DNA of 64,000 nt, from positions 78,317 to 142,316 of the forward strand of contig CAWEMA010000007.1 of the NCBI GenBank assembly GCA_963810035.1, in the 5' to 3' direction. A program made the position numbers and the translations under genes. This document shows positions 7,097 to 28,872 of this stretch, one piece after another. Below the pieces are notes generated by a model. It had not been told where the DNA came from, did not search any database, and was given only the letters and a program-made list of their open reading frames with translations. Position 1 is the first letter of the stretch, and each line of letters begins with the position of its first letter. Origin of the DNA: an uncultured Actinomycetota bacterium. Lineage in GTDB: Bacteria; Actinomycetota; Actinomycetes; Propionibacteriales; Nocardioidaceae.

Positions 7097-7170
7097 TTGT
7101 GGGGGGCCGGACGCAGCGATACGCTCCGCGTGGTATTGCGTATCGCGAAATGAGTTGCTCCATGCGCAAC
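7097..7170 (+). promoter_or_regulatory. metF promoter (TTGTGG-N17-TACGCT) and tandem operator pair
   Basis: -35 at 7097-7102, -10 at 7120-7125; palindromes ATTGCGTATCGCGAAAT (7135-7151) and GTTGCTCCATGCGCAAC (7154-7170). Confidence 0.7.
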
Positions 7171-8016
7171 AAGTCCCACGGCGCCTTCCTGGCCGACATG
7201 CTCTCGTCGGCCCGCTTCGAGGTGCTGCCCACCGGGAGCATCGAGGACAAGGTTCTCGAGCACCTCCCGCTGGAGCGCACGCTCACGGTGACCGCGTCCC
7301 CGACGAAGGGGATCGAGGCCACCCTGGACCTGACCGAGCGGCTCGCCCGCCACGGGTACGCCGTGGTGCCGCACCTCGCCGCACGGTTGGTCAGCGGTCG
7401 CACCGAGCTGTCCGAGATCTGCACGCGCATGCAGGCGGCCGGCGTCCGCACGGTGTTCGTGCCCGGGGGCGACGCCGACCCGCCGGTGGGGGACTACCAC
7501 AGCGCCCTCGACCTGCTCCAGGACCTGACCGCCCTGGGCCGGCCGTTCCCGGAGGTGGGGATCACCGGCTACCCGGAGTCGCACCCCACCATCAGCGACG
7601 ACCTCACGGTGCAGTCGATGTGGGACAAGCGCCGGCACGCGACGCACGTGGTCAGCAACCTGAACTTCGACCCCGAGGCGGTGCGCTCGTGGATCGACCG
7701 GATGCGCAGCCGCGGGATCACGCTGCCGGTGCTGCTGGGCATCCCCGGCCCCATCGACCGCGCGAAGCTGCTGGCGATGGCGACCAAGATCGGGGTCGGT
7801 GACTCGACCCGGTTCCTGGTCAAGCACAAGGGCACCTTCGCGCGGCTGGCCGCGCCGGGCGGGTTCACCGGCGAGCGGTTCCTGGAGCGGTGCGCCCCGG
7901 TGCTGGCCCGACCCGGGGCCCTGGTCACCGGGCTGCACGTCTACACGTTCAACCAGGTCGCCGAGACCGAGGCCTGGCGGCGGGAGTACCTCGACCGGCT
8001 GATGGCCGTGCGCTGA
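7162..8016 (+). CDS. metF: Methylenetetrahydrofolate reductase (short MTHFR family)
   Basis: RFEVLP, VTASP, VVPHLAAR, VFVPGGD, GITGYPESHP, GLHVYTFNQ. Start is ambiguous (7150, 7162 or 7198). Confidence 0.85.
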   Translation: MRNKSHGAFLADMLSSARFEVLPTGSIEDKVLEHLPLERTLTVTASPTKGIEATLDLTERLARHGYAVVPHLAARLVSGRTELSEICTRMQAAGVRTVFVPGGDADPPVGDYHSALDLLQDLTALGRPFPEVGITGYPESHPTISDDLTVQSMWDKRRHATHVVSNLNFDPEAVRSWIDRMRSRGITLPVLLGIPGPIDRAKLLAMATKIGVGDSTRFLVKHKGTFARLAAPGGFTGERFLERCAPVLARPGALVTGLHVYTFNQVAETEAWRREYLDRLMAVR

Positions 8017-8030
8017 GCGGGCCGTCGCGG

Positions 8031-8057
8031 TCAGCGCGGCAGCAGGTCGGCGAGCGC
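8031..8057 (-). other. Orphaned copy of the DUF1638 gene 3' end (encodes ALADLLPR-stop)
   Basis: Reverse complement reads gcg ctc gcc gac ctg ctg ccg cgc tga; 8041-8057 matches 8901-8917 at 16 of 17 nt. Confidence 0.7.
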
Positions 8058-8096: not shown

Positions 8097-8891
8097 ATGG
8101 GGGAGCCCGTGCAGTTGCAGGACCTGACCGGCAGGGTCGCGTTGGTGACCGGTGGCACGAGCGGGATCGGGCTGGCCACCGCCGGCGCCTTCGCCGAGCG
8201 CGGCGCCGACGTGGTGATCTGCGGTCGCAGCGAGACGCGTGGGCAGCAGGCGTTGAAGGAGCTCTGCGAGCCTGCGAACGTCAGCTTCGTCGCCGCCGAC
8301 GTCACCGACGAGCACGACGTGGTCGACCTCGTCCGGGAGGTGGTGGCCCGGCACGGCAGGCTCGACTTCGCCTTCAACAACGCGGCGAACGCCGAGGCAC
8401 TGACCAGCTCCGGTGCCTTCACCGACATGAGTCTCGAGGAGTTCGAAGGCATCGTCCGGACGCTGATGACGAGTGCGTGGCTGTGCATGCGCCACGAGGT
8501 GCCGGCGATGCTCGAGACCGGCGGAGGCGCCATCGTGAACACGTCCTCGGTCGACGCCAAGCTGCTCAGCGCAGGCACCGGCAGCTATGCCGCCAGCAAG
8601 CTCGGGCTCGAGGCGCTCACGGTCACGCTCGCCAAGGAGTTCGCCTCCCGCGGCATCCGGGTCAACGCGGTGCGTCCCGGCGCGATCCTCACTCCGATGC
8701 TCGAGCGCCACCTCGCCGCACCGACGGCGGAGGGACGGAAGGCCAACGTGGAGCGGTACGAGCAGGTGATCTCGATGCGCCGGCTCGGCCACCCGAGCGA
8801 GGTGGCCGCTGCGGTGACGTGGCTCTGCTCGGATGCCGCGTCCTACGTGACGGGTCAGGTGCTGACGGTGGACGGCGCGTTGGGGATGTAG
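8097..8891 (+). CDS. Classical short-chain dehydrogenase/reductase (FabG-like)
   Basis: TGGTSGIG, NNAA, YAASK, RVNAVRPG, GQVLTVDG; RBS GGGGAG. Confidence 0.9.
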   Translation: MGEPVQLQDLTGRVALVTGGTSGIGLATAGAFAERGADVVICGRSETRGQQALKELCEPANVSFVAADVTDEHDVVDLVREVVARHGRLDFAFNNAANAEALTSSGAFTDMSLEEFEGIVRTLMTSAWLCMRHEVPAMLETGGGAIVNTSSVDAKLLSAGTGSYAASKLGLEALTVTLAKEFASRGIRVNAVRPGAILTPMLERHLAAPTAEGRKANVERYEQVISMRRLGHPSEVAAAVTWLCSDAASYVTGQVLTVDGALGM

Positions 8892-9553
8892 CGGTCCCCG
8901 AGCAGGTCGGCCAGCGCGCGCTCGAGACCGGTGTGGCCGGTCTCCACGACGACCAGCGGCAGCCCGATCCGGGCGGCCGCCTGCTCGGCCAGGGCCCGCA
9001 GCTCGTCGTCGGGCTGCTGGGCCAGCCAGACCATCCGCGTGTAGTGCGCGAAGTAGTCGTCGCGCAGCTCCGGGTAGCGGTCCAGGCCCAGCTCCGCGAC
9101 CACGGTGCGGTTGAACGAGCGGACCAGGAAGTCGGTGAGCACGTAGGTGCCGGGCTCTGCCTCGAACATCGCGGCGAGCCGGTCGGCGCCGCCGTACACG
9201 TCGTAGCAGTGCAGGCCGGCGAGCCGGCCGAGACCGCGACGGTCGCAGACCTCGTCCAGGACGCCGTAGGTGCCGCAGTCGGCGTACCCGACCGCGACGG
9301 TGTCGTAGCGCTCCTGCAGGTCGGCCGCGAGCCGGTCCACCTCGCCGGCGATCCGCGCCGGGTGGTTGTGCAGCAGCGGTGGCAGCGGGTGTACGTCGAC
9401 GGGCCAGCCGCGCCGCTCCACCACCTGTGCGCAGGGGGCCGCGATCGCCCCGCACGCGATCAGGGCGACGCGTGCCCGGGGACGCTCAGCCGGGGAAGGC
9501 GAGGAGGTCGACGAACCGGTCGTTGAAGTCGGCGCGGTCGGAGAGCTCGACAT
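8855..9553 (-). CDS. DUF1638 family protein (partner of corrinoid systems)
   Basis: LIACGA, LHNHP, GYADCGTYG, HCYD, TYVLTDF, YFAHY. Start is uncertain; overlaps both neighbours. Confidence 0.8.
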   Translation of the reverse strand: MSSSPTAPTSTTGSSTSSPSPAERPRARVALIACGAIAAPCAQVVERRGWPVDVHPLPPLLHNHPARIAGEVDRLAADLQERYDTVAVGYADCGTYGVLDEVCDRRGLGRLAGLHCYDVYGGADRLAAMFEAEPGTYVLTDFLVRSFNRTVVAELGLDRYPELRDDYFAHYTRMVWLAQQPDDELRALAEQAAARIGLPLVVVETGHTGLERALADLLGDRYIPNAPSTVST

Positions 9554-11426
9554 ACTCCACCTCCTCCAGGAGCGCCAGGGCGCCGGCGCGCTCGCGCACG
9601 CTGAGCAGGCTCATCTTCGCGCCCTCACCGGCGACGTTGCCCGCCGAGACGATCCGGAGCACCGGGATCTTCGGCACCAGGCCGATACGCACGGCGGCCG
9701 CGGGGGAGAGGTAGCTGCCGAAGGAGCCGGCGAGCAGCACCTGCTGCACGTCGGAGTGCTCGAGGCCGAGCTGCTCGAGCAGCAGGGTCCAGCCGGTGGC
9801 GATCGCGCCCTTGGCGAACTGCAGCTCGCGGACGTCTCGCTGGGAGAGGTACACCGACTCCTCGGGCGGCGAGCCGGGCTCCGGACGGTGCAGGACGAAG
9901 ACCCGCTCCTGGCCGATGCTGGTCAGCCGGTCGGCGACCTGCGGGGCGATCTCGAGCGCCCGCTCGTCGGTGACGAACCGGCCGCTGGCGTCGAGCAGGC
10001 CGGCGCGGACCAGCTCGGAGACCACGTCGACGAGGCCGGAGCCGCACAGGCCCTGCGGCTCGACGTCGCCGATCACCTCCAGGTGCACGCCGGCCTCGTC
10101 GATCCGGACGACCTCGACGGCGCCGTCGGCCGCGCGCATGCCGCAGCGGATCGCGCCGCCCTCGAACGCCGGGCCGGCCGGGGCCGCGGTGGACACGATG
10201 GTGTCGCCGTCGCTGAGCACGATCTCGCAGTTGGTGCCGACGTCGATGAACAGCCGGGTGCGCTTGTCGCGGTCCATGCCGGTGGCCAGCATCCCCGAGA
10301 CGATGTCGCCCCCGACGTACGCACCGAGCGCCGGGAACAGCACGGCCCGGGCGCGCGGGTGCAGCGACAGGCCGAGGTCGGAGGCGAGCAGGGTGGGCAG
10401 GGTGGTGGTGGACATGACGAACGGCGCGACGCCGATCGGCTCGGGGTCGATGCCGAGCACCAGTGCGGTCATGGTGGCGTTGCCGGCGAGGGCGACCTCG
10501 TAGACCTCGTGCGGCTCCACGCCCGCCTCGTCGAGCACGTTGCCGGTCAGCTCGGCCAGGGTCGCCTGCGCGAGCTCGCGGAGCCGGTCCGCGGCGAGCG
10601 GGTCCAACATGGTGGCGCTGATCCGGGTGATCACGTCGCCGCCGAACGGTTGCTGCTTGTTGAGCATCGAGGCGACCGCCGCCGGGGTGCCGGTGGCGGT
10701 GTCGACCAGGGTCGCGACCACGGTGGTGGTGCCGAGGTCGAAGGCGATCGCGAACCGCCGCTGCGTGGTGTCCCCGGGCTCCACGTCGATGAGGGCCTCG
10801 TCGACGACGACCGCGGTCACCTTGAAGTCGGCCTGGCGCAGCACGTGCGGCAGCCGGCGCAGCACGTGCAGGTCGGGGGTGAGCTCGAGGTCCTCGATCG
10901 CGTCCTGGACCCGCTGCAGGTCGGTGCGCTGGTCGGACAGGGTCGGCTCGGTGAGCTCGACGTACCGCTTCTGCACCGCCGGGCGCAGGATGACCTGGCG
11001 TCCGACGCCGAGCGTGGCGGCCTTCGGGCGGGTCGTCAGCGGCGGCACCTCGACCTTGAGGTCCTGGGTCGCCTGGGCCAGGCAGGCCAGCCGCCAGCCG
11101 GCGTCGAGCTGCTCGGCGGTGAAGGAGCGTACGTCGAGCCGGTGGATCGGCACGCTGCCGTCGAGGACCTGCACCTTGCACTTCTTGCAGGTGCCGTGCC
11201 CGCCGCAGGTGGAGTCGATCGCGATGCCGTTCCAGCTGGCCGCGTCGAACACGCTGACGCCGGGCGGCACCCGGACGTCGCGGCCCGACGGCGTGAAGGA
11301 CAGCTGCACCCGGCCGGCGCCGTCGTGCGGGGGCAGCCCGGGCCCGTCGGGCCGGTCCAGGAGGCCTTCCCTGCGCAGGTCGTCGACCTCGACCTCGGGC
11401 GGTTGCGTCAGCGGCATCTCGTTCAT
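9486..11426 (-). CDS. ATP-dependent reductive activator of corrinoid proteins (2Fe-2S + ASKHA domain; RamA/RACo-like)
   Basis: CGGHGTCKKC and LAC ferredoxin cysteines; FDLGTTT, GGDVITRI, DVGTNCE, GPAFEG, LCGSGL, LAGSFGS. ATGA overlap with the upstream gene. Confidence 0.92.
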   Translation of the reverse strand: MNEMPLTQPPEVEVDDLRREGLLDRPDGPGLPPHDGAGRVQLSFTPSGRDVRVPPGVSVFDAASWNGIAIDSTCGGHGTCKKCKVQVLDGSVPIHRLDVRSFTAEQLDAGWRLACLAQATQDLKVEVPPLTTRPKAATLGVGRQVILRPAVQKRYVELTEPTLSDQRTDLQRVQDAIEDLELTPDLHVLRRLPHVLRQADFKVTAVVVDEALIDVEPGDTTQRRFAIAFDLGTTTVVATLVDTATGTPAAVASMLNKQQPFGGDVITRISATMLDPLAADRLRELAQATLAELTGNVLDEAGVEPHEVYEVALAGNATMTALVLGIDPEPIGVAPFVMSTTTLPTLLASDLGLSLHPRARAVLFPALGAYVGGDIVSGMLATGMDRDKRTRLFIDVGTNCEIVLSDGDTIVSTAAPAGPAFEGGAIRCGMRAADGAVEVVRIDEAGVHLEVIGDVEPQGLCGSGLVDVVSELVRAGLLDASGRFVTDERALEIAPQVADRLTSIGQERVFVLHRPEPGSPPEESVYLSQRDVRELQFAKGAIATGWTLLLEQLGLEHSDVQQVLLAGSFGSYLSPAAAVRIGLVPKIPVLRIVSAGNVAGEGAKMSLLSVRERAGALALLEEVEYVELSDRADFNDRFVDLLAFPG

Positions 11427-12301
11427 CCTGCGGCGGCAGCCTGCTTCTTGCGGTGAGCGGCGATCCAGCTGCCACCCCACTCGTCGTGCCCGAGCAGCAG
11501 GTCGGCGGCCTTGACCGCGCCGACGATCTGGGGGCTGCGGGTGTCCATGATCGCGCTGGTGAGACCCGCGGTCATCGCCATCGGCAGGAACGTCGCACCG
11601 AGGGTGTGCCGGTCGGGCATCCCGAAGGACACGTTGGACGCGCCGCAGGTCATGTTGAGGCCGTGCACCTCGCGGATCCGGCGCATCGTCTCGAGCGTGG
11701 TGCTGACCACCGAGGTGTCGGCGCCGATCGGCATCGCGAGCGGGTCGATCACGATGTCCTGCTTGGCGATGCCGTACTCCCCGGTCGCGACGTCCACGAT
11801 GTGCTGGACCAGCTCGAGGCGGCGGTCCGCCTCCATCGGGATCTCCTCCGCGTCGTTCGGCAGCGCGATGATCGCCGCGCCGTACTTCTTGACCAGCGGC
11901 AGGATCAGCGCCATCCGATCGTCCTCGGCGGTGACCGAGTTGACCAGCGCCCGGCCCTGGTAGACGGCGAGGCCGGCCTCGAGCGCCTCGACGACCGAGG
12001 AGTCGATGCACACCGGCTTGTCGGTGAGCCCCTGCACGAGGGTGATCGCCTGGGCGAGCAGCTCGGGCTCGTCGGTCATCGGCACGCCCATGTTGACGTC
12101 GAGGACGTCGGCGCCCCCCTCGACCTGCGCGATGACGTCGCGCTCGACCGCCGACAGGTCCCCGGCGCGCAGCTGCTCCTGGAAGATCCGGCGGCCGGTC
12201 GGGTTGATCCGCTCGCCGATCAGGCAGAAGCGGCGACCGTGCCCGATCACCACCTCGGCGGTGGCGGAGCGCAGCGTGGTCTCGAGAAGCTCGGCGCTCA
12301 T
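11423..12301 (-). CDS. Pterin-binding methyltetrahydrofolate:corrinoid methyltransferase
   Basis: IGERINPTGR, LDVNMG, CIDSS, LVNSV, IDPL, GASNVSFGMP, AIMD. Confidence 0.9.
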   Translation of the reverse strand: MSAELLETTLRSATAEVVIGHGRRFCLIGERINPTGRRIFQEQLRAGDLSAVERDVIAQVEGGADVLDVNMGVPMTDEPELLAQAITLVQGLTDKPVCIDSSVVEALEAGLAVYQGRALVNSVTAEDDRMALILPLVKKYGAAIIALPNDAEEIPMEADRRLELVQHIVDVATGEYGIAKQDIVIDPLAMPIGADTSVVSTTLETMRRIREVHGLNMTCGASNVSFGMPDRHTLGATFLPMAMTAGLTSAIMDTRSPQIVGAVKAADLLLGHDEWGGSWIAAHRKKQAAAAG

Positions 12302-12963
12302 GCGGTCACCAGCGCCCGCTTCTTGCCCAGCAGGTCCTTGGCGCGCTTGACGGTCGCGGACGCGTCGGGCGCGTAGCCGTCGGCGCCGACCGCGTCGGCG
12401 TACTCCTGGGTGACCGGTGCGCCACCGACCATCACGATCACCTGGTCGCGCAGCCCGGCCTTCTCGAGCGCGTTCAGGTTGGCCTTGAACATCGGCATGG
12501 TGGTGGTGAGGAACGCCGAGAAGCCGACGATGTCGGGCTGGTGCTCGATGATCTTCTCCACGAACTTCTCCGGTGCGACCTGCACGCCGAGGTCGATCAC
12601 CTCGAAGCCGGCGCCCTCGAGCATGATGTTGACGAGGTTCTTGCCGATGTCGTGCACGTCGCCCTTGACGGTGCCCATCAGGAACTTCCCGACGGTCTCC
12701 ACGCCGGTGTCGGCGAGCAGCGGGCGCAGCACCTCCATGGCGCCGGCCATCGCGCGCCCGGCGATCAGCATCTCCGGGACGAAGAAGTCGCCGCGCTCGA
12801 AGCGCGCCCCGACCTCCTCGAGTGAGGGGATCAGCGCGTCGAACAGCAGGGTCTGCGGTTCCATCTGCATCTCGAGGGCCCGATGGGTCAGGTCGAGCAC
12901 CTCGGGTGCGTTGCCGGTCAGCGTCTCGTCGTAGAGCCGCTGAAGGATCTCCTCGGGTGTCAT
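12298..12963 (-). CDS. Corrinoid (B12-binding) protein
   Basis: Cap domain followed by GTVKGDVHDIGKNLV (DxHxxG), SAFLTTTM, VGGAP, GADGY. Confidence 0.95.
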   Translation of the reverse strand: MTPEEILQRLYDETLTGNAPEVLDLTHRALEMQMEPQTLLFDALIPSLEEVGARFERGDFFVPEMLIAGRAMAGAMEVLRPLLADTGVETVGKFLMGTVKGDVHDIGKNLVNIMLEGAGFEVIDLGVQVAPEKFVEKIIEHQPDIVGFSAFLTTTMPMFKANLNALEKAGLRDQVIVMVGGAPVTQEYADAVGADGYAPDASATVKRAKDLLGKKRALVTA

Positions 12964-13802
12964 GCCGCGCCCTCCTTGGTGGTGCTGTCGGTGCTCCCGG
13001 AGCGGTCAGCGCCTCTGGAGCTTCCGGCCCGGTCAGGGCTCTCGGAGCCGTGCCGGGTCCGGCGGTGAAGCAGCGCCGACAGGGTGTCGGCCTGCTCGAT
13101 CAGGAGCCGACCGATGCGATCGACCCGGTCCTGGAGCCGGGCGGTGGGCCCGGAGATGCCGAGGGCGGCGAAGACGCCGTCCCTGCCCTCGACGGCGGCG
13201 GCGATACCGGTCAGCCCGGTCTCGAGCTCGTCCACGGTGACCGCGAAGCGGCGACGGCGCACGGAGGCCAGCTCGGTGGCCAGCGCGTCCCGGGTGGGCA
13301 CGGTCCGGTCGGTGCGGCGCTCGAGCCGGCCGGCCGGCAGCGGCAGGCGGTCGAAGGCGTAGAGCACCTTGCCCAGCGCGGAGCAGTGCGGGGGTACGTC
13401 GACCTGGTTCCAGTCGCGGGCCGAGAGCAGGTAGGTCGACTCGACCTGCGCGATGTGGACGACGTCCGTGCCGCGCGCGACGCCGAGGTGCACCGTCTCG
13501 CCGGTCTCGGCGCCGACGGTCTCCAGGACCGGACGGGCGAGCCGGGCGATCTGCGGCCAGGGGTCGTGCAGCGCGGCGTGCAGCGCGAACAGCGGCCCGG
13601 CGACGTACCCGCCGCCGGCGTCCCGCTCGATCAGCTCGGTGCGCTCCAGGGCGGCGAGCAGTCGCGAGGTGGTGGAACGGGCCAGGCCGGTCTCGTCGCT
13701 GAGCTCGGTGAAGCTGAGCGGCTCGTCGGCTCGCACCACCAGGTCGACGAGCGCTGCGGCGCGATCGACCGCCTGCGTGCCCGCCGGTGGAGTGTTGCTC
13801 AT
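12960..13802 (-). CDS. IclR-family transcriptional regulator (regulator 1; first gene of the corrinoid operon)
   Basis: QAVDRA HTH, GETVHLG, CSALGK, ELETGLTGIAA, ALGISGP. Confidence 0.92.
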   Translation of the reverse strand: MSNTPPAGTQAVDRAAALVDLVVRADEPLSFTELSDETGLARSTTSRLLAALERTELIERDAGGGYVAGPLFALHAALHDPWPQIARLARPVLETVGAETGETVHLGVARGTDVVHIAQVESTYLLSARDWNQVDVPPHCSALGKVLYAFDRLPLPAGRLERRTDRTVPTRDALATELASVRRRRFAVTVDELETGLTGIAAAVEGRDGVFAALGISGPTARLQDRVDRIGRLLIEQADTLSALLHRRTRHGSESPDRAGSSRGADRSGSTDSTTKEGAA

Positions 13803-13824: not shown

Positions 13825-13861
13825 GTTTCATCATATGGAACCGACTTCCACATGATGAGGC
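13825..13861. promoter_or_regulatory. Paired palindromic operator between divergent iclR1 and mttB
   Basis: GTTTCATCATATGGAAC (13825-13841) and CTTCCACATGATGAGGC (13845-13861). TCATCATATGGAA and TTCCACATGATGA form a 12/13 inverted repeat. It covers minus-strand TATGAT (13830-13835) and abuts plus-strand TAGGAT (13862-13867). Confidence 0.7.
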
Positions 13862-13921
13862 TAGGATGCCGACCAGCGCCGGTCAAGGAGAACCGCCCAA
13901 GTTCCTGTGCAGGAGGTCGGA

Positions 13922-15361
13922 ATGTTTCGCAACACGATGCCGAGGTACGAGATCCTCTCCGAGGACGCGATGGCCAAGCTCGACGCGGGCTGGCGTCGGC
14001 TGGTCACCGAGATCGGTGTCGAGTTCGACAGTGAGCGCGCGCTCGAGCTGTTCCGGCAGGCCGGCCAGCGGGTCGAGGACAAGACCGTCTACCTCGACCC
14101 CGAGTTCGTCCTCGCGCAGGTGGCCAAGGCCCCGCGCGAGTTCGACGTCCAGGCCCGCAACCCCGAGCACAACATCCACATCGGCGGCGACGCGATGGCG
14201 TTCGGCGCGGTCTACGGGCCGCCGTTCGTGCGCGAGGGTGACGTCCGCCGCGACGCGACCATGAACGACTTCGAGCGGTTCACCAAGCTCGCCCAGACCT
14301 TCCCGGTGCTCGACTCGGCGGGCGGTGTGATCTGCGAGCCCAACGACACACCGCTCGACTCGCGGCACCTCGACATGACCTACGCGCTGCAGACGCTGAC
14401 CGACAAGGTCTACATGGGCAACGTGGTCTCCGGCGTGAACGCCCGCGACACCATCGCGATGGGGGAGATCCTGTTCGGTGGCCGCGAGGCGATCGAGCAG
14501 ACCCCGGTCTCGATCTCGTTGATCAACTGCAACTCGCCGCTGCACTGGGACGGGCGGATGCTCGAGTCGCTCTTCGAGTACACCCTGGCCGGGCAGCCGT
14601 GCGTGGTGACGCCGTTCATCCTGATGGGCGCGATGTCCCCGGTGACGATCCCGGCTGCGCTCGTGCAGCAGATGGCCGAGGCGCTCTCCGGCATCGCGCT
14701 CACGCAGCTGGTCCGACCCGGTGCGCCGGTCATCTTCGGGTCGTTCCTGTCCAACATCGACATGCAGTCCGGGTCGCCGACGTTCGGCACGCCGGAGTCG
14801 GGCATCGGCCTGCTGTGCACCGGCCAGATCGCCCGGCACTTCGGCCTTCCGTTCCGTTCCGGCGGCGGGCTCACCTCGTCGCAGGTCGCGGACGCCCAGG
14901 CGGGCTACGAGGCCCTGATGACGATGCTGCCGACGTTCCTCGCCGGGGCCAACTGGGTGATGCACTCGGCCGGCTGGCTCGAGGGCGGCCTGGTCGCGGG
15001 CTTCGAGAAGTTCATCGTCGACGTGGAGATCCTGCAGATGCTGCGGGCGGAGTTCACCCCGCTCGAGATCGACGAGGACTCGCTCGCGTTCGGCGCGCAC
15101 CTGGAGGTCGGCCACGGCGGGCACTTCCTCGGGGCGATGCACACGATGGAGCGCTTCCGCACCTGCTTCTACCGCCCGATGCTCTCCTCCTCGGACAACT
15201 ACGAGCGGTGGATGCGCAACGGCGGCCTCGACGCCAACGCCCGCGCGACGAAGATCTACCAGGCCAAGCTCGAGGAGTATGTCGCCCCGCCGCTCGACGA
15301 CGCCGTGCGGGCCGAGCTGCAGGAGTACGTCGTACGCCGCCGCCGCGAGCTGGGCGACTGA
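13922..15361 (+). CDS. MttB-superfamily non-pyrrolysine methyltransferase (MtgB-like; quaternary-amine substrate likely)
   Basis: NSPLHWD, GAMSPVT, DMQSGSPTFGTPE, RSGGGLTSSQVADAQAGYE, HSAGWLEGG, VGHGGHFLG; RBS AGGAGG; no in-frame TAG. Confidence 0.9.
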   Translation: MFRNTMPRYEILSEDAMAKLDAGWRRLVTEIGVEFDSERALELFRQAGQRVEDKTVYLDPEFVLAQVAKAPREFDVQARNPEHNIHIGGDAMAFGAVYGPPFVREGDVRRDATMNDFERFTKLAQTFPVLDSAGGVICEPNDTPLDSRHLDMTYALQTLTDKVYMGNVVSGVNARDTIAMGEILFGGREAIEQTPVSISLINCNSPLHWDGRMLESLFEYTLAGQPCVVTPFILMGAMSPVTIPAALVQQMAEALSGIALTQLVRPGAPVIFGSFLSNIDMQSGSPTFGTPESGIGLLCTGQIARHFGLPFRSGGGLTSSQVADAQAGYEALMTMLPTFLAGANWVMHSAGWLEGGLVAGFEKFIVDVEILQMLRAEFTPLEIDEDSLAFGAHLEVGHGGHFLGAMHTMERFRTCFYRPMLSSSDNYERWMRNGGLDANARATKIYQAKLEEYVAPPLDDAVRAELQEYVVRRRRELGD

Positions 15362-16271: not shown

Positions 16272-16307
16272 GTTGCGTCAACGGAAACACATTCTGTGAT
16301 ACGCAAC
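16272..16307. promoter_or_regulatory. Tandem operator pair between divergent purU and iclR2
   Basis: GTTGCGTCAACGGAAAC (16272-16288) and ATTCTGTGATACGCAAC (16291-16307), 19-bp period. Confidence 0.7.
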
Positions 16308-17131: not shown

Positions 17132-17196
17132 TTGACGGAGAAACCCTGACCCGCAATCCTGTTGCGTGTAGCACACGGAGTTGCGACATACGCAAC
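17132..17196 (+). promoter_or_regulatory. betB operon promoter (TTGACG-N17-AATCCT) and tandem operator pair
   Basis: GTTGCGTGTAGCACACG (17161-17177) and GTTGCGACATACGCAAC (17180-17196). Confidence 0.75.
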
Positions 17197-18705: not shown

Positions 18706-18719
18706 CGAAGGGCGAGGAC

Positions 18720-21487: not shown

Positions 21488-23481
21488 CCGCCGTACAGGA
21501 ACGACCCAAGGTCAAGGAGGAGCAGCCGTACGTCGACACCGCCCCCAACCGGCGCACGGGGCTGTGGGTCGGTGTCGTGCTGGTGGTGTGGATCGTCGGG
21601 TGGGCGCTGCTCAAGGGGCGCAACACCCTGGCGCTGGGCTTCCAGGACCAGACCGACTTCCACCGCTGGCTCAACGGGCTGCGTGACGACATCCAGCTCG
21701 CCGCCAGCCGCGGCAACTGGTTCTTCCATGGTGTCATCGGCACCATCTCGGACTTCTTCAACTGGCTGGTCACCCAGCTCCAGCAGCTGGTCAGCGTCCC
21801 CGCCTTCCCCCGGCCGGTCCCGGAGATCGGCTGGCTCGGCGTCGTCGCGCTGCTGATCTGGCTGGCCTACGCCGTGGCCGGGTGGCGCTCCGCGTTCATG
21901 ATGGGCACGACCGTCCTCGTCTTCGGGTTCCTGGGCTACTGGGAGGAGGGCATGGACACGCTGATCATCACCACGCTCGCGGTCCTCATCTGTGTGGTGG
22001 TCGGCCTTCCGCTCGGCATCTCCATGGCACGCCGCAAACCCGTGTCGGCGGGCGTGACGCCCGTCCTGGACGTGATGCAGACGATGCCGTCGTTCGCCTA
22101 CCTCACGCCCCTCGCGCTGATCTTCGGCATCGGCCCGGCGGCGGCGATCGTGGTCACCCTCATCTACGCGCTGCCCCCGCTGGTGCGGATCACCGAGCAC
22201 GGCATCCACTCGGTCCCCGAAGGCACCATCGAGGCCGCCAGCTCGCTCGGTGTCAGCCAACGGCAGCTGCTGCGCAAGGTGCAGCTCCCGATGGCCCGCC
22301 GCACGATCGTGGTCGGCATCAACCAGTGCACGATGGCTGCCCTCTCGATGGCGACCATCGCCGTCCTGGTCAACGGCCCCGGTCTCGGCAAGCCGGTCCA
22401 GGCGGCGCTGCAGAACCTCGACGTCGGCACCGCGGCGGTGGCCGGCCTCGCGATCGTGCTGGTCGCGATCATGCTCGACCGGACCACCACCGCCGCCAGC
22501 GAGCGGGTGGAGCGGCAGACGCGCAAGGGCCACCTGTCCGAGAAGCAGCGCCGGTACGTCGTGCTCGGCGGCTTCGTCGGTGCCCTGGTCGCGGTCTACC
22601 TGTCCCGCACCTACCTCGGGCTGGCCCAGTTCTCCGAGAGCCTGAACGTCGGACCCCAGCTGGCGAAGGGCCTCAACGGCTTCACGGACTCCACCGTCAA
22701 CGTCGTCGACGGTGCGACCAACGCCTTCAAGAACGCGGTGAGCTACGGCTTCCTGAACCCGTTGCAGTCGCTGCTGGCCGAGACGCCCTGGTGGCTGATG
22801 GGTGCGGTACTGCTCGCCCTCGCCTACGTGCTCGGCGGCTGGCGCCCCGCCGCCGTGACCCTGGTCTGTGAGGGCGTGATCCTCGGCACCGGCCTGTGGC
22901 ACGACTCGATGGTCACGCTCACCATGACCATCGTCGCCACCGTGCTCGTGATGGTGGTGGCGGTGGCGCTCGGGGTCTCGATGGGCCGAAGGCACCGGGT
23001 CGACTCGATCGTCCGGCCGGTCCTGGACGCGTTCCAGACGATCCCGCCGTTCGTCTACCTCGTCCCGGCGCTGGCGCTGTTCGCCAGCAGCCGCTTCACC
23101 GCGATCGTCGCGGCGATGGCCTACGCCATCCCGATCGCGACCAAGCTCGTGGCCGACGGCATCCGGGGCGTGTCGCCCACGACGGTCGAGGCGGCGGAGT
23201 CGGCGGGCATCACCGCCCGGCAGATGATCACCAAGGTGCAGCTGCCGATGTCGCGCGAGGCGCTCGTGCTGGCCACCAACCAGGGGCTGCTGTACGTCCT
23301 TTCGATGGTCGTCATCGGCGGTCTCGTCGGCGCCGGCAGCCTGGGCTACATCGTGGTCTCCGGGTTCTCGCAGTCGCAGCTGTTCGGCAAGGGGCTGGCC
23401 GCCGGCATCGCGATCACCGCGCTCGGCGTGATGATCGACCGCACCATGAGGTACGCCGCCGCGCGCTACGGGAGGTCCTAG
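21484..23481 (+). CDS. ABC importer permease with two fused ProW-like domains
   Basis: Two repeats: [13 protein letters not shown] and [13 protein letters not shown], each with an EAA-like loop ([16 protein letters not shown]). Confidence 0.9.
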
Positions 23482-23531
23482 CGCACACGACTTCTTGGCT
23501 CAGGGGAGCCGAGGTGATGAAGGGATGACGC

Positions 23532-24497
23532 ATGGCACGAGGAACTCGCCGGCTCCGGCTGGCCTGTCTCGCCGCTACCGCTGCGCTGGTACTGGCGGGG
23601 TGCGGCGGGGGCAACATCAAGGAGTCCAACACCTCTGCCGCGGGGGGCAAGGACTGCGGCGACCTGAACGTCGCGGTGAACCCGTGGACGGGCTACGTGG
23701 CCAACGCGCACGTCATCGGGTACGTCGCCCAGACCAAGCTCGGCTGCAAGGTGAACTACCAGGACGTGAAGGAGGAGGTCGGCTGGCAGGGCATGTCCAA
23801 CGGCACGATCGACACCATCGTCGAGAACTGGGGTCACCCTGACCTGGTCAAGAAGTACATCGACCAGCAGAAGACCGTCCAGGACGCCGGCCTGACCGGT
23901 AACGACGGGATCATCGGCTGGTACGTGCCGCCGTGGATGGCGAAGAAGTACCCCGACATCACCGACTGGAAGAACCTGAACAAGTACGCCTCGATGTTCA
24001 AGACCTCCGAGTCCGGCGGCAAGGGGCAGCTCCTCGACGGCGACCCGTCGTACGTCACCAACGACGAGGCACTGGTGAAGAACCTGAAGCTGAACTACAA
24101 GGTCGTCACCGGTGGCAGCGAGGCCGCCCTGATCCAGAGCTTCCGGACCGCTGAGAAGAACCACAAGGCGCTCCTGGCCTACTTCTATGAGCCGCAGTGG
24201 TTCTTCTCGGAGGTGAAGCTGGTCAAGGTCGACCTGCCGCCGTACAAGCCGGGTTGTGACTCCGACCCGGCGAAGGTCGCCTGCGACTACCCGCCGTACA
24301 AGCTGAACAAGCTGATCGCCAAGAAGTTCGCCGACTCCGGCTCCCCGGCGGTCGGGCTGGTCAAGAAGTTCAACTGGACCAACGACGACCAGAACCTGGT
24401 GTCCACCGACATCGCCGAGAAGGGCATGAGCCCCGACGACGCGGCGAAGAAGTGGGTCGAGGCCAACCCGGACAAGGTCAACGCCTGGCTGAACTAG
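23532..24497 (+). CDS. Quaternary-amine ABC substrate-binding lipoprotein
   Basis: Lipobox LAGC; NPWTG, ENW, GWYVP, YFYEPQW (candidate aromatic-cage residues). Confidence 0.9.
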   Translation: MARGTRRLRLACLAATAALVLAGCGGGNIKESNTSAAGGKDCGDLNVAVNPWTGYVANAHVIGYVAQTKLGCKVNYQDVKEEVGWQGMSNGTIDTIVENWGHPDLVKKYIDQQKTVQDAGLTGNDGIIGWYVPPWMAKKYPDITDWKNLNKYASMFKTSESGGKGQLLDGDPSYVTNDEALVKNLKLNYKVVTGGSEAALIQSFRTAEKNHKALLAYFYEPQWFFSEVKLVKVDLPPYKPGCDSDPAKVACDYPPYKLNKLIAKKFADSGSPAVGLVKKFNWTNDDQNLVSTDIAEKGMSPDDAAKKWVEANPDKVNAWLN

Positions 24498-24534: not shown

Positions 24535-24608
24535 TTGACAGGCGCGGCGGGGGAGTCGCATGCTGAAGGCCTGTCTCATATAGCGCACCACAGTGCGTAA
24601 TACGCAAC
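24535..24608 (+). promoter_or_regulatory. Promoter (TTGACA-N18-CATGCT) and tandem operator pair upstream of the GcvT-family oxidoreductase
   Basis: GTCTCATATAGCGCACC (24573-24589) and AGTGCGTAATACGCAAC (24592-24608). Confidence 0.75.
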
Positions 24609-24629: not shown

Positions 24630-27146
24630 ATGGCCTCGGTCCCGCCCACCGCCCGCGTCGTCGTGATCGGCGCCGGCATCGTCGGCAACAGCCTCGTCCA
24701 CCACCTGGCCCGGCTGGGCTGGCGGGACATCGTGCAGATCGACAAGGGTGCGCTGCCGAACCCGGGCGGCTCGACCGGGCACGCGTCGAACTTCATCTTC
24801 CCGGTGGACCACTCCCGGGAGATCACGGACCTGACCCTGGACAGCATGAAGCAGTACAAGGAGATGGGCGTCTTCACCGAGTCCGGCGGCTTCGAGGTCG
24901 CCCGCACCGAGGAGCGCATGGAGGAGCTGCGCCGGCGGATGTCCTCGGCGAAGGCCTGGGGCATCGAGTCGCACCTGGTCACCCCCGCGGAGGTCACCGC
25001 GAAGGTGCCGTTCCTCGACGCCGACCAGATCATCGGCGCGTTCTGGACCCCGTCGGTCGGTGTGGTCGACTCGCTGCGCGCGGGCACGATCATGCGGGAG
25101 CGCGCGCTCGAGTCGGGTGCGCTCACCGTCGTACCCACCGTCGAGGTGATCGGCCTCGACGTCGAGGCCGGCGCGATCAAGCGGGTCCGCACCACGGGTG
25201 GCGACATCGAGGCCGAGACCGTCGTCATCGCGTGCGGGGTGTGGAGCCCGAAGCTGGCGAAGATGGCAGGCGCGCACATCCCGCTCACCCCGGCCGTGCA
25301 CCAGATGATCAGCGTCGGCCCGTGCCCGCAGCTGGCCGAGCGGGAGGGTGAGATCTCCTTCCCGATCATCCGGGACATGGACACGCTCTGCTACGAGCGG
25401 CAGCACGGCGCGGACATGGAGGTCGGCTCCTACGCGCACCGCGCGATCCTGCACGACGCCGAGGACATCCCCTCGATCGAGCAGGCCAAGCTCTCGCCGA
25501 CCGAGATGCCGTTCACCTCCGAGGACTTCGACCCGCAGCTCGAGCAGGCCTACGAGCTGATGCCGGACCTGCTCGGTGCCGAGGGCGCCGAGATCCGCTA
25601 CGCGATCAACGGCCTGCTGTCGCTGACCCCCGACGGCGCGCCGATCCTCGGTGAGACGCCCGAGGTGAAGGGGCTGTGGTCCGCTGCGGCCGTCTGGGTC
25701 AAGGAGGGCCCGGGCGTGGGGCGTGCGGTCGCCGAGTGGATGACCGACGGGCTGCCGGAGGTCGACCTCAGCCACTCCGACATCGCGCGGTTCTACCCGC
25801 ACCAGCGCACCCGCGCGCACATCAAGGCCCGCACCGGCGAGGCGTTCATCAAGACCTACGGCATCGTCCACCCCGGCGAGCAGTACCTGTCCGACCGCGA
25901 CAAGCGGCTCGCTCCGATGCACGCCTCGCAGCAGGAGCTCGGCGCGAGCTTCGTCGAGGCGGTGGGCTGGGAGCGGCCGCTCTGGTACGAGTCCAACGCC
26001 GGCCTGCTCGAGGAGTACGGCGACCGCGTGATGCCGCGTGAGCACGAGTGGGACGCGCGCTGGTGGTCGCCGATCATCAACGCCGAGCACCTCGCGATGC
26101 GCGACCGGGCCGGCATCATCGACCTGTCCGCCTTCGCGATCTTCGACGTGGTCGGTCCCGGCGCACTCGGGGCGGTGCAGAGGGTCTGCGTCTCCCAGTG
26201 CGACGTCGCCGTCGGCCGGGTCGTCTACACCCCGGTGCTCGACGAGCGGGGCGGCTTCCGCTCCGACCTGACCGTGATGCGGCTCGCGCACGACCGGTTC
26301 CGGGTGGTCACCGGTGGCGCGCACGGCATGGTGGACCGCAAGTGGTTCGCCGACCGGATGCCCCAGGACGGCACGGCGCAGGTCGTCGACCTCACCTCGG
26401 CGTACACCACCATCGGCCTGTGGGGCCCCAAGGCGCGCGACATCCTCGGCGAGCTCACCCGCGACGACATCAGCCACGAGGGCTTCGGCTTCGGCACCTG
26501 CCGCGACATCGAGACCGGCTCGCTGTCCGTGCTCGCCTCCCGGATCTCCTACGTCGGCGAGCTCGGCTGGGAGCTGCACGTCCCGATCGAGCAGGGCGCC
26601 CGGCTCTGGTCGATGCTGCACGAGGCCGGCTCGTCGTACGGCGCGGTGCCGGTCGGCATCGGCGTCTACGGCACCACCGGGCGCATCGAGAAGGGCTACC
26701 GGGCCTTCGGGTTCGAGCTCGACTCGGAGCGGACCGTCGTGGAGGCCGGCATGCAGCGGCCCAAGGTCAAGGCGGCGGACTTCGTCGGCCGGGAGGCCTA
26801 TCTCAAGCAGCGCGTCGAGGACCCGAAGTCGGTGCTCTGCACGCTGACCGTCGAGGACCACACGTCGAAGTCGGGCACCAAGCGCTACATGCTCGGTGGT
26901 GAGCCGATCTTGACGTCGAGCGGTGGCGAGCTGGTCGACGACCACGGCCACCGGCCCTACGTCACCAGCGCCGGCTCCGCGCCGTCCCTCGGCAAGCACG
27001 TGCTGATGGCCTACCTGCCGCCGTCCGAGGCGACGGTGGGCAACGAGCTCGCCGTGTCCTACATGGAGGAGCTCTACCCGGTGAGGGTCGGCTCCGCCGA
27101 CAGCACCGGGCTCTTCGACCCGAGCAACGAGCGGATCAAGTCATGA
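24630..27146 (+). CDS. Dimethylglycine oxidase/dehydrogenase-like flavoprotein (DAO + GcvT THF-binding domains)
   Basis: VIGAGIVG, GGSTGHA (candidate covalent-FAD His), VHQM and CYERQ, GWERP, DLSAF, SYVGELGWE, RIEKGY; 838 aa. Confidence 0.85.
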   Translation: MASVPPTARVVVIGAGIVGNSLVHHLARLGWRDIVQIDKGALPNPGGSTGHASNFIFPVDHSREITDLTLDSMKQYKEMGVFTESGGFEVARTEERMEELRRRMSSAKAWGIESHLVTPAEVTAKVPFLDADQIIGAFWTPSVGVVDSLRAGTIMRERALESGALTVVPTVEVIGLDVEAGAIKRVRTTGGDIEAETVVIACGVWSPKLAKMAGAHIPLTPAVHQMISVGPCPQLAEREGEISFPIIRDMDTLCYERQHGADMEVGSYAHRAILHDAEDIPSIEQAKLSPTEMPFTSEDFDPQLEQAYELMPDLLGAEGAEIRYAINGLLSLTPDGAPILGETPEVKGLWSAAAVWVKEGPGVGRAVAEWMTDGLPEVDLSHSDIARFYPHQRTRAHIKARTGEAFIKTYGIVHPGEQYLSDRDKRLAPMHASQQELGASFVEAVGWERPLWYESNAGLLEEYGDRVMPREHEWDARWWSPIINAEHLAMRDRAGIIDLSAFAIFDVVGPGALGAVQRVCVSQCDVAVGRVVYTPVLDERGGFRSDLTVMRLAHDRFRVVTGGAHGMVDRKWFADRMPQDGTAQVVDLTSAYTTIGLWGPKARDILGELTRDDISHEGFGFGTCRDIETGSLSVLASRISYVGELGWELHVPIEQGARLWSMLHEAGSSYGAVPVGIGVYGTTGRIEKGYRAFGFELDSERTVVEAGMQRPKVKAADFVGREAYLKQRVEDPKSVLCTLTVEDHTSKSGTKRYMLGGEPILTSSGGELVDDHGHRPYVTSAGSAPSLGKHVLMAYLPPSEATVGNELAVSYMEELYPVRVGSADSTGLFDPSNERIKS

Positions 27147-27916
27147 GCAACGTCCTGGTGTGCATCAAGCGGGTGCCCGACCTCGGTGGCGAGATCAGCC
27201 TCACCGCCGACGGCATGTCCGTGGACGACTCCAGCCTGGGTCACACGGTCAGCCCGCACGAGGAGTGCGCGGTCGAGCTGGCGATCCAGGTCGCCAAGGA
27301 CACCGACGGCCAGGCCACGGTGCTCACGCTCGGGTCTTCGGACGCCGTGGAGCAGCTGCGCAACGCGCTCGCGCTCGGGTGCACCGGTGCCGTGCTGGTC
27401 GAGGCCGACGCCGCGGCGTACGGTCCGGCCGACGTCGCCGCGGCGATCGCCGACGTGGTCCGCGCGCACGAGGCGGCGGGCACGACGTACGACCTGGTCC
27501 TGCTGGGCAACGACGCGTCGGACACCGGCGACTTCCAGGTCGGCATCCGGCTGTCCTACGTGCTCGACCGGCCGGTGGTGGCCGGCGTCTCGATGCTGTC
27601 CGTGCAGGGTGACCGGGTCGCCGCGCGCGGCCAGGCTCCCGACGGTGGCACGGAGCTCTTCGACGTGCCCCTGCCTGCCGTGCTGACCGTGATGGAGGGC
27701 GGCATCGAGCCGCGCTACCCCTCGATCCCCGGCCGGATGAAGGCCAAGAAGGTCGCGATCGAGCAGGTCGCGCCCAGCCACGAGCCCGCCGGCTCGGGTC
27801 GCGTCCGGCTCAAGCTGCCGCCGCCCCAGCCCAGCCAGGTATCCATCCTGGGCGAAGGCCCCGAGGCGGCCGGTGCGGTCGTCGACCTGCTCGAGAAGCT
27901 CGGAGTGACGCGATGA
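27143..27916 (+). CDS. etfB: Electron transfer flavoprotein beta subunit
   Basis: VLVCIKRVPD, ECAVELA, DLVLLGNDASDTGDFQVG, PRYPS; ATGA-coupled to the upstream gene. Confidence 0.92.
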   Translation: MSNVLVCIKRVPDLGGEISLTADGMSVDDSSLGHTVSPHEECAVELAIQVAKDTDGQATVLTLGSSDAVEQLRNALALGCTGAVLVEADAAAYGPADVAAAIADVVRAHEAAGTTYDLVLLGNDASDTGDFQVGIRLSYVLDRPVVAGVSMLSVQGDRVAARGQAPDGGTELFDVPLPAVLTVMEGGIEPRYPSIPGRMKAKKVAIEQVAPSHEPAGSGRVRLKLPPPQPSQVSILGEGPEAAGAVVDLLEKLGVTR

Positions 27917-28872
27917 TCCTGGTCCTGGTGGAGACCGACGAGAGCGGCGCCAGCGAGGTGTCGCGCGAGACCCTGACGTTCGCACGCGGGCTCGGCGGCG
28001 ACGTGCACGTGCTCGTGGTCGGTGACGGGCCGTCCGGCCTGGTCGACCAGCTCGGCGCGTACGGCGTCACCGCGGTGCACCACGCCGACGGCGACTCCTT
28101 CACGTCCTACGCCGCGGCCGCTTGGGCCGCCGCGGTCGTGGCAGCGGCGGGGGACGCGTCGGTGGTGATGGCGGCCGGCACCCCGCGCGGCAACGAGGTG
28201 CTCGCGCACGCCGCCTGCCGGCTCGGCGTCGCGATGGCCGCGAACGTCGTCGCCGTCGACTCCACCTCACCGCTCGTCGTGTCCCGCCAGGTGCTCGGCG
28301 GGGCGGCGATGGAGGAGATGCCGCTGGCCGACCCGGTCGCCGTGCTGACGGTCGCCGGGCACGCCTGCGACCCGGCGCCCACCGACGTGAGCACGTCTCC
28401 CGTCGTGCAGCCGCTCGACGTCGCGGTCTCCGAGAGCGACCTGCGGGCGCGCGTCGTACGCACCGAGCCGGGGGAGCCCGACGAGTCCGGCAGCCTCAAG
28501 TCGGCCAAGGTCGTGATCGGTGCGGGTCGTGGTGCCGGCAGCGCGGACGGGTTCAAGGACCTGCTCGAGCTGACCGACCTCCTCGACGCGTCGCTGGGCG
28601 TCTCCCGGGTGGTGACCAGCCTCGGCTGGCGCCCGCACCACGAGCAGGTCGGGCAGACCGGCAGCCGGGTGTCGCCGGACCTGTACGTCGCGTGCGGCAT
28701 CAGCGGCGCGATCCAGCACTGGGCCGGCATGGCGAGCTCGAAGACGATCCTGGCGATCAACACCGACCCGGACGCGCCGATGGTGACCAAGGCGCACTAC
28801 GCCGTGATCGGTGACCTGCACGAGATCGTCCCGGCCATCAACGACGAGCTGCGGCGGCGTCGCTCCGCCTGA
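27913..28872 (+). CDS. etfA: Electron transfer flavoprotein alpha subunit
   Basis: GAGRG, GVSR, QVGQTG, LYVACGISGAIQH, AINTDPDAP. Confidence 0.93.
   Translation: MILVLVETDESGASEVSRETLTFARGLGGDVHVLVVGDGPSGLVDQLGAYGVTAVHHADGDSFTSYAAAAWAAAVVAAAGDASVVMAAGTPRGNEVLAHAACRLGVAMAANVVAVDSTSPLVVSRQVLGGAAMEEMPLADPVAVLTVAGHACDPAPTDVSTSPVVQPLDVAVSESDLRARVVRTEPGEPDESGSLKSAKVVIGAGRGAGSADGFKDLLELTDLLDASLGVSRVVTSLGWRPHHEQVGQTGSRVSPDLYVACGISGAIQHWAGMASSKTILAINTDPDAPMVTKAHYAVIGDLHEIVPAINDELRRRRSA

Follow-up and report, generated by a model that had tools for sequence, protein, structure and literature searches.

A chromosomal choline and glycine betaine gene cluster of soil Nocardioidaceae with a putative cobalamin-dependent first demethylation

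The stretch of DNA analysed here (64,000 nucleotides; hereafter the window, whose own numbering is used throughout) comes from an uncultured actinomycetotal bacterium of the family Nocardioidaceae (assembly GCA_963810035.1, contig CAWEMA010000007.1, positions 78,317 to 142,316). It contains a cluster of genes at 7162-28872, spanning exactly from the ATG of a MetF-like gene to the stop codon of etfA, that probably serves the catabolism of choline and glycine betaine. Because the G+C content of ~70% makes mechanical lists of open reading frames (ORFs) mostly noise, genes were selected by third-position G+C (GC3) and frame plots, and the chosen ORFs were scanned against Pfam, NCBIfam and the PDB sequences. 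All the genes that an initial annotation, made from the letters of the sequence, had listed for the cluster were recovered at their positions; two IclR-family regulators and a short-chain dehydrogenase (SDR) are additional. The MetF-like and SDR genes run forward and are followed by a reverse unit of the first regulator (IclR1), an MtgC-like corrinoid protein, a PF00809 methyltransferase, a RACo-type activase and a DUF1638 protein. The MttB-family gene runs forward and purU in reverse, and a second forward unit comprises IclR2, BetB, BetA, an ABC importer (ATPase, fused permease and OpuAC binding protein), a dimethylglycine oxidase (DMGO) homologue, EtfB and EtfA. Within the two long units, 4-nt overlaps occur at most junctions between genes, indicating that these units are operons. 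The features of the cluster are as follows.

7162-8016, plus strand: MetF2-like protein of the methylenetetrahydrofolate reductase (MTHFR) fold, 284 residues; weak PF02219 match (41 bits); alternative starts at 7099 and 7150
8097-8891, plus strand: SDR; adh_short_C2, 209 bits
8855-9553, minus strand: DUF1638 protein; PF07796, 73 bits
9486-11309 or 9486-11417, minus strand: RACo/RamA-type activase; Fer2, RACo_linker, Raco_middle and RACo_C_ter domains
11423-12301, minus strand: pterin-binding methyl-tetrahydrofolate (methyl-THF):corrinoid methyltransferase of the 'MtgD' type; PF00809 Pterin_bind, 93 bits; NF005719, 314 bits (cutoff 259)
12298-12963, minus strand: corrinoid (B12-binding) protein, MtgC-like; B12-binding_2 and B12-binding domains
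12960-13802, minus strand: IclR-family regulator 1; HTH_IclR and IclR_C domains
13828-13858, no strand: palindrome, candidate IclR1 operator; 13-nt arms, TCATCATATGGAA-N5-TTCCACATGATGA
13907-15361, plus strand: MttB-family methyltransferase, 484 residues; PF06253, 622 bits over residues 4-483
15367-16248, minus strand: PurU, formyl-THF deformylase; TIGR00655, 344 bits, above its cutoff of 286
16299-16307, plus strand: 9-mer ATACGCAAC, candidate IclR2 operator half-site; exact copies also at 17188-17196 and 24600-24608
16330-17127, plus strand: IclR-family regulator 2; IclR_C, 159 bits, and HTH_IclR, 61 bits
17221-18705, plus strand: BetB-like betaine-aldehyde dehydrogenase; Aldedh, 552 bits; best model TIGR01804 BADH, 610 bits, just under its cutoff of 669
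18702-20417, plus strand: choline dehydrogenase BetA; TIGR01810, 827 bits, above its cutoff of 732
20414-21487, plus strand: ABC importer ATPase; ABC_tran
21484-23481, plus strand: fused double permease of the ABC importer; BPD_transp_1 twice
23532-24497, plus strand: OpuAC-type binding protein of the ABC importer; OpuAC, 143 bits; the importer spans 20414-24497
24630-27146, plus strand: homologue of dimethylglycine oxidase/dehydrogenase (DMGO), 838 residues; DAO, FAO_M, GCV_T and GCV_T_C domains
27143-27916, plus strand: EtfB, electron-transfer flavoprotein (ETF) beta; ETF domain
27913-28872, plus strand: EtfA, ETF alpha; ETF_alpha domain

The cluster is resident in the chromosome. It is flanked by dnaE on the left and by hisD, hisC, hisB, hisH, hisA, hisI, trpC, trpB, lgt, gltBD and pyk on the right, which form a conserved actinobacterial chromosomal region and bear out the initial description of an actinobacterial backbone. 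The G+C content is flat (0.68-0.72) over the cluster and its flanks without any compositional anomaly, and dnaE adjoins the cluster in three close relatives as well, showing that this is a resident catabolic cluster rather than a recently acquired island. The initial term island should thus not be taken to mean foreign DNA. A plasmid-borne or recently transferred island was rejected on the basis of the flat G+C content and of a search of PLSDB, which returned no close homologue on an actinobacterial plasmid; all the matches were below 60% identity, and the genera reported were alpha- or betaproteobacterial. The nearest relatives of the MttB-family protein (86-95% identity) are from Nocardioidaceae isolates and soil metagenome-assembled genomes, and metagenomes of soil and rhizosphere contain DNA words of the cluster. 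The host belongs to the soil Nocardioidaceae.

The corrinoid module is the sole candidate in the window for the conversion of glycine betaine to dimethylglycine. No match to a Rieske oxygenase or to PF02574 (betaine-homocysteine methyltransferase (BHMT)/homocysteine-binding) was found among the scanned GC3-supported ORFs of the whole window, so that the initial statement of no Rieske GbcAB and no BHMT extends well beyond the cluster. We put the probability at roughly 75% that this is a choline/glycine-betaine catabolic cluster in which the first N-demethylation is carried out by a three-component cobalamin-dependent methyltransferase of the MtgB/MtgC/MtgD type. The assignment of this step to the corrinoid module, already made in the initial annotation, is supported by a gene context conserved over dozens of species and by a predicted structural match to MtgB.

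The conservation of the context was analysed in species-representative genomes. A scan with the MttB-family protein found at least 589 stretches with a relative, and the neighbourhoods (±10 kb) of the best 80 were compared. Their MttB proteins are 82-95% identical, and the loci belong mostly to Nocardioidaceae, with additional members in Geodermatophilaceae, Phycicoccus, Dactylosporangium and Jatrophihabitans; cultured carriers are Nocardioides terrigena, N. iriomotensis, N. panacisoli and Pimelobacter simplex. The corrinoid module is kept beside MttB in 69-79 of these best 80 loci, with IclR1 adjoining in 79, MtgC in 76, the PF00809 methyltransferase in 73, RACo in 72, DUF1638 in 70 and the MetF-like gene in 69. 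BetB (59/80) and BetA (57/80) are present wherever the flank extends to them, PurU is found in 58 loci and the ABC ATPase in 50. IclR2 has matches in 79 of the loci, among which ~66 are true orthologues (at least 53% identity) and the rest are cross-matches to IclR1 at 32-38%. The flank usually ends before the DMGO homologue and ETF are reached, yet they adjoin in several loci: the DMGO-EtfB-EtfA trio is adjacent also in L069 and L080, and L037 has a DMGO-like gene and EtfB. The variable slots stay within the theme of choline, betaine and one-carbon (C1) metabolism. In 14 loci (L043, 11494-13242, minus strand, and 13 others), a formate-THF ligase occupies the PurU slot beside MttB, and in 12 (L010, 13144-15012, plus strand, and 11 others), a BCCT betaine/choline transporter is inserted after MttB. 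When the extra genes of the 80 neighbourhoods were clustered, the ten most recurrent clusters included neither a rival demethylase nor MtgE (PF02574). The SDR gene is absent from all 80 loci, indicating a lineage-specific insertion outside the conserved cluster.

The MttB-family ORF is uninterrupted and has no in-frame UAG (pyrrolysine) codon, and the pyrrolysine-type model TIGR02369 gives 279 bits, below its cutoff of 525. The protein belongs to the non-pyrrolysine branch of the MttB superfamily (PF06253/COG5598). Its identity is 42% to Desulfitobacterium hafniense MtgB (2QNE, 9YCE), 44% to the Sinorhizobium meliloti protein 4YYC and 24% to Methanosarcina MttB. An AlphaFold (AF2) model calculated from an 86-sequence alignment has a pLDDT of 96.8 and a TIM-barrel fold. 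Structural comparisons of this model with the betaine-bound MtgB (9YCE) gave a TM-score of 0.96 and a root-mean-square deviation (r.m.s.d.) of 1.6 Å, with TM-scores of 0.96 for 2QNE and 0.91 for MttB 7XCL. In D. hafniense, an anaerobe that uses the methyl group for energy metabolism, MtgB, MtgC and MtgA pass this group on to THF as a relay of three components served by an ATP-dependent activase, and the same logic is predicted for the window. Mutagenesis and crystallography of MtgB showed that Y97 and F356 make cation-π contacts with the substrate, whereas R312 and H348 hold its carboxylate (Picking et al., PMC13080624). The carboxylate-binding residues correspond to R317 and H353 in the window and Y97 corresponds to Y103, all of which are invariant in the 80 orthologues. 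Thus, the likeness to MtgB assumed in the initial annotation extends to the fold and to these three residues, but not to F356.

The partners of the MttB-family protein resemble components of known corrinoid systems. The corrinoid protein carries a DVHDIG motif (DxHxxG type) at residues 102-107, and its best NCBIfam model is MtgC_2 (193 bits, below the cutoff of 370). Its best PDB match is 1Y80 (1e-55); this and the other leading matches, MttC and D. hafniense 4JGI, are small corrinoid proteins from methyltransferase systems, and MetH scores lower. The PF00809 methyltransferase is most similar to the methyltransferases MeTr 2YCK/2YCI (1e-43), and D. hafniense MtgA is not among its PDB sequence matches. 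The THF methyltransferase of the initial annotation is therefore kept as a PF00809/MeTr-like enzyme, which by its sequence is of the 'MtgD' type found in the Ruegeria system and differs in this respect from the D. hafniense relay. The activase matches RACo of Carboxydothermus hydrogenoformans (3ZYY) over its full length (E 2e-101, residues 39-639) and has cysteines at positions 35, 41, 44 and 76, counted from the start at 11309. Its N-terminal 2Fe-2S, linker, middle and ASKHA ATPase domains are all present, which identifies it by sequence as a RACo/RamA-type reductive activase. The four-domain architecture and full-length homology are common to RACo and methanogen RamA; however, RACo serves CoFeSP in an anaerobe, whereas the window activase would act, in an aerobe, on a small corrinoid protein of the MtgC type. 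The activase is read in the frame of ORF 9486-12011 (minus strand), probably starting at GTG 11309 and possibly at ATG 11417. The frame 9625-11475 (minus strand) was rejected as it had no Pfam or NCBIfam match. For the DUF1638 protein, no solved relative was found among the PDB sequences; by analogy with related systems, it may be accessory to corrinoid reactivation.

The folate and dimethylglycine genes would take over the products of this demethylation. The MetF-like protein scores only 50 bits with TIGR00676, far below the cutoff of 294. Its closest solved relative is S6MTHFR (7XG9, E 1.3e-27), and canonical MTHFRs give at most 28 bits (1e-5 or weaker). It is best described from its sequence as a divergent MTHFR-fold protein and not a canonical MetF, so that the initial name MetF holds for the fold only. 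S6MTHFR of Sphingobium lignivorans SYK-6 is a type-4 'reverse' MTHFR that oxidises methyl-THF beside THF-dependent demethylases (PMC11868366), and the MetF-like gene similarly sits beside a putative demethylase making methyl-THF and an enzyme consuming formyl-THF. From this context, the reaction would run from 5-methyl-THF to 5,10-methylene-THF. Along its full length, the DMGO homologue matches the dimethylglycine oxidase of Arthrobacter globiformis (1PJ5, E 7e-156), and the two proteins have four domains in common. Its H51 aligns with His48 of 1PJ5, the covalent-FAD site reported by Leys et al. (2003). The stop codon of the DMGO homologue overlaps the start of etfB, and 4-nt overlaps continue along DMGO-etfB-etfA, suggesting translational coupling of the three genes. 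In contrast to 1PJ5, this coupling suggests a dehydrogenase that passes electrons to ETF, as the mammalian dimethylglycine dehydrogenase (DMGDH) does, rather than reducing O2. The predicted products are sarcosine and methylene-THF.

Two candidate operators would divide the cluster. The divergent region between IclR1 and MttB is 104 bp long and holds the palindrome at 13828-13858. Of the 25 orthologous regions inspected, nearly all show it upstream of MttB. A search of the related loci for the exact 31-nt palindrome was empty, as its arms differ between loci at one or two bases. The 9-mer ATACGCAAC has three exact copies in the 64 kb, all of them intergenic within the cluster: between PurU and IclR2, between IclR2 and BetB, and upstream of the DMGO homologue. 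One-mismatch copies are located at 7135-7143 (minus strand) upstream of MetF2 and at 17161-17169 (minus strand) upstream of BetB. Allowing up to one mismatch, 11 matches were found versus 3.4 expected, and none of 100 shuffles reached 11. In the 80 loci, 56 of the 70 exact copies lie within 200 bp of the starts of IclR2, BetB, PurU or DMGDH. These patterns make the palindrome a candidate operator of IclR1 and the 9-mer a candidate half-site of the IclR2 operator. They suggest two regulons, one of MttB with the corrinoid module and one of the rest of the cluster, in which the common 9-mers would tie MetF2, PurU, the bet genes and DMGO together. No B12 or THF riboswitch was detected in the window by Rfam at the gathering threshold, the sole match being a tRNA at 61142-61224.

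Modules of this divergent architecture are also carried by alphaproteobacterial plasmids. One of them is located on plasmid p1 of Paracoccus methylovorus (L081, 5249-13461), where ASKHA, MtgD, MetF, DUF1638 and B12-protein genes diverge from MttB as in the window. The window MttB, MtgC, MtgD and DUF1638 proteins are 44-45% identical to their Paracoccus counterparts (DUF1638 45%), and RACo is 30% identical. In contrast to the two IclR regulators of the window, the Paracoccus module has a GlxA-type regulator. The MTHFR partner is also of another type, and tblastn gave no match to the Paracoccus MetF/MetV pair. The Paracoccus module carries an acetogen-like two-part MTHFR (MetF and a C-terminal-domain protein) and adjoins a carnitine 3-dehydrogenase gene and an IS630 transposase.

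Several observations weigh against the assignment of the first demethylation to an MtgB-like betaine enzyme. Position 356 of MtgB tolerates Phe or Tyr but not Leu (the F356L mutant of D. hafniense MtgB has a Km of ~734 mM, PMC13080624). The equivalent residue is a glycine in the window (G361), in 4YYC and in all 80 orthologues, so that one defining feature of MtgB is lacking. Thus, the substrate assignment rests mainly on context. The I352 position of MtgB is occupied by W357, an invariant tryptophan four residues upstream of G361. Of 95 full-length members representing the superfamily, obtained by searching 1.84 billion cluster representatives, 37 have an aromatic residue at 352 alone, 40 at 356 alone, 18 at neither position and none at both (Fisher p 5e-13, without correction for phylogeny). 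This alternation suggests that the aromatic wall has been relocated, with W357 in place of F356, rather than lost. However, covariation is the sole evidence for the replacement, and the segment 353-362 of the AF2 model is not a regular helix by DSSP, which precludes an i/i+4 argument for W357 and G361. The protein is also equally distant (42-44%) from the characterised MtgB and from the uncharacterised 4YYC, which carries the same YRHW-GG signature over the six pocket positions compared; 4YYC is a proteobacterial structural-genomics entry that reports no activity. The two nearest 50%-cluster representatives (60% identity) have Gln or Ser at the Y97 position, indicating that specificity changes quickly in this family. 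For the folate branch, the type-4 MTHFR markers L48, R78 and P268 (in loop β2-α3, helix α8 and loop β8-α11, PMC11868366) align to S46, L76 and Thr of the MetF-like protein in a well-anchored pairwise alignment. As all three differ, the gene was rejected as a type-4 'reverse' MTHFR. A literature search for actinobacterial work found no biochemical or genetic evidence on such a system. Transcription speaks weakly in favour of the assignment: four metatranscriptomes from soil and ice contain contigs of at least 90% identity that together span every coding gene of the cluster, deepest over the genes of the corrinoid protein and of the DMGO homologue and shallowest over the regulators and the permease. 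The contigs derive from mixed relatives, however, and their depth reflects expression poorly and may include DNA or paralogues.

The pocket differences raise the question of whether the MttB homologue acts on another quaternary amine, such as proline betaine, carnitine, gamma-butyrobetaine or choline, with betaine being demethylated by an enzyme encoded elsewhere (GbcAB-type or BHMT) or merely accumulated as an osmolyte. Besides the glycine at position 356 and the variable Y97 position in the nearest representatives, it is relevant that members of the family at 30-45% identity have distinct substrates (PMC13080624, PMC8604678 and PMC12155760) and that R312 and H348 are common to enzymes acting on other acidic quaternary amines (PMC13080624). 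The carnitine dehydrogenase adjoining the Paracoccus module points the same way; yet this context is compatible with betaine as well, since carnitine catabolism also yields glycine betaine. However, the conserved neighbours BetA and BetB make glycine betaine and the DMGO homologue consumes dimethylglycine, leaving without MttB a gap exactly between the two. Moreover, Y97, R312 and H348 are all kept, unlike in many paralogues, and no other demethylase is included in the ten extra-gene clusters that recur most often at the 80 loci. Another substrate is thus considered unlikely, and an MtgB-like glycine betaine:corrinoid methyltransferase is the identity that we infer for the MttB-family protein from its sequence and neighbours. 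The either/or aromatic at 352/356 may mark two pocket architectures and could be a usable marker for sorting the pockets of the MttB superfamily.

The system closely resembles that of the aerobic marine bacterium Ruegeria pomeroyi, which requires MtgC and MtgD for growth on betaine and induces its PF06253 MtgB proteins, RamA, DUF1638 and MetF2 (Mausz et al., PNAS 2025, PMC12478193). Both systems have a PF06253 MtgB, a PF02310 MtgC, a PF00809 MtgD, a RamA/RACo-type activase, DUF1638, an extra MetF paralogue and THF-linked C1 oxidation. In R. pomeroyi the genes are dispersed, whereas here they form one cluster with betAB, an ABC importer, the DMGO homologue with ETF, and PurU; in other Proteobacteria, mtg genes are clustered with later demethylation steps (PMC12478193). 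The host of the window belongs to the Actinomycetota, whose share of oceanic mtgC reads is 5% (PMC12478193). Since the aerobic MtgBCD route is published in Ruegeria, the window represents a new putative host lineage for a known system and not a new system. The novelty supposed in the initial annotation is therefore narrower: the route is uncharacterised in actinobacteria according to the literature search, but B12-dependent betaine demethylation in an aerobe is not new. The elements that remain new are the lineage, the complete and compact form of the cluster, the DMGO homologue coupled to ETF, the candidate IclR operators and the alternation of Trp and Phe.

The Ruegeria comparison also allows the module to be read differently. 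In Phaeobacter inhibens and R. pomeroyi, methionine synthesis depends on these four kinds of protein, and so does betaine demethylation (PMC12478193); PF00809 methyltransferases are reversible. MtgC, MtgD, RACo and DUF1638 could thus serve mainly as a split methionine synthase, cobalamin-dependent and of the MtgCDE type of Phaeobacter and Ruegeria, with a secondary link to betaine or a dual function. A PF02574 MtgE-type gene was found neither in the 64-kb window nor in the ten recurrent extra-gene clusters. The module is paired divergently with MttB at a shared palindromic candidate operator, and C1-oxidation genes (MetF2, and PurU or formate-THF ligase) flank it, pointing to a catabolic flux. 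A primary role in methionine synthesis is considered highly improbable, whereas a dual role is conceivable because MtgE is unlinked in Ruegeria too.

With betaine demethylation as the preferred function, the following route is predicted from homology and context at every step. The OpuAC-type ABC system would import choline or betaine, and BetA and BetB would oxidise choline to glycine betaine. The TIM-barrel pocket of the MttB-family protein would bind betaine, with its carboxylate held by R317 and H353 and with Y103 and probably W357 as cation-π walls. The methyl group would be transferred to Co(I) of the corrinoid protein with the release of dimethylglycine, and the PF00809 methyltransferase would carry it from methyl-Co(III) to THF. 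Re-reduction of the Co(II) corrinoid, likely frequent in an aerobe, would be carried out by the 2Fe-2S/ASKHA RACo, probably together with DUF1638. The divergent MTHFR-fold protein would convert methyl-THF to methylene-THF, and PurU would free formate from formyl-THF. Dimethylglycine would be converted to sarcosine by the DMGO homologue, with the C1 unit passed to THF via the GcvT domain and the electrons to ETF. IclR1 would act at the MttB/corrinoid palindrome and IclR2 at the ATACGCAAC sites before the bet, transport, DMGO, PurU and MetF2 units. O2 would not be a substrate of any step.

The independence of the cluster from O2 would fit a B12 branch that works only in hypoxia or anoxia as an inherited anaerobe-type system, while an O2-dependent route carries the betaine flux in air. 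Cob(I)alamin is oxygen-sensitive, and the solved structures most closely related to the corrinoid protein come from anaerobes (1Y80 of Moorella, MttC of Methanosarcina and 4JGI of D. hafniense). However, the system functions in aerobically grown R. pomeroyi (PMC12478193), and the window MtgC shares 44% identity with its counterpart in Paracoccus, an aerobe. In addition, the RACo reactivase and DUF1638 are kept in 70-72 of the 80 loci, and fragments of all the cluster genes are found in the soil and ice metatranscriptomes. A restriction to hypoxia is the least probable of the alternatives considered.

If the cobalamin-dependent betaine demethylation holds, its aerobic form extends from marine Proteobacteria to abundant soil Actinomycetota, and osmolyte turnover in soil would be tied to the supply of vitamin B12. 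Soil metagenome surveys assign 'mttB' to Nocardioides and Pseudonocardia but class it as a methanogenesis marker (PMC12492547), and the cluster offers a concrete reading for these genes. The compact cluster, with two candidate operators and cultured carriers, makes a convenient test system. A wider picture is put forward tentatively and is, in our estimate, rather doubtful as a whole: soil Nocardioidaceae and other Actinomycetota would run the path from choline to sarcosine without O2 as a substrate, through respiratory BetA, NAD-linked BetB, B12 methyl transfer and an ETF-rewired DMGO homologue. Such a path might work under hypoxia or with alternative electron acceptors, render the osmolyte turnover of its hosts dependent on B12 and explain a large part of the 'mttB' signal that metagenome studies of oxic soils assign to methanogenesis. 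Its MtgB would bind betaine with a relocated W357 wall in place of F356, as a second structural solution in the superfamily.

Several minor features were observed around the cluster. A DUF3352 protein gene at 5433-7055 (plus strand), between dnaE and the cluster, is common only to the five closest relatives. Beyond the right edge, a small unassigned ORF at 28950-29282 is followed by a glyoxalase-like gene at 29333-29710 (minus strand) and by a DUF222 and HNH endonuclease gene at 29797-31152 (plus strand), which is REP13E12-like, after the repeats of M. tuberculosis. Two adjacent His_biosynth genes of the HisA/HisF type, at 37726-38487 and 38484-39326, are on the minus strand in the otherwise plus-strand his/trp region. 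They are followed by a PLD-domain protein gene at 39310-41007 (minus strand) and by two ABC exporter genes at about 41100-43381 and 43381-45171. An ORF for an ANTAR response regulator at 61193-61948 (plus strand) has an annotated start that falls within the tRNA gene at 61142-61224 (minus strand), and the true start of this ORF is therefore probably further downstream. The ANTAR ORF is followed by a Peripla_BP_6 binding protein gene at 62039-63418 (plus strand), and the pair resembles the AmiC/AmiR type.

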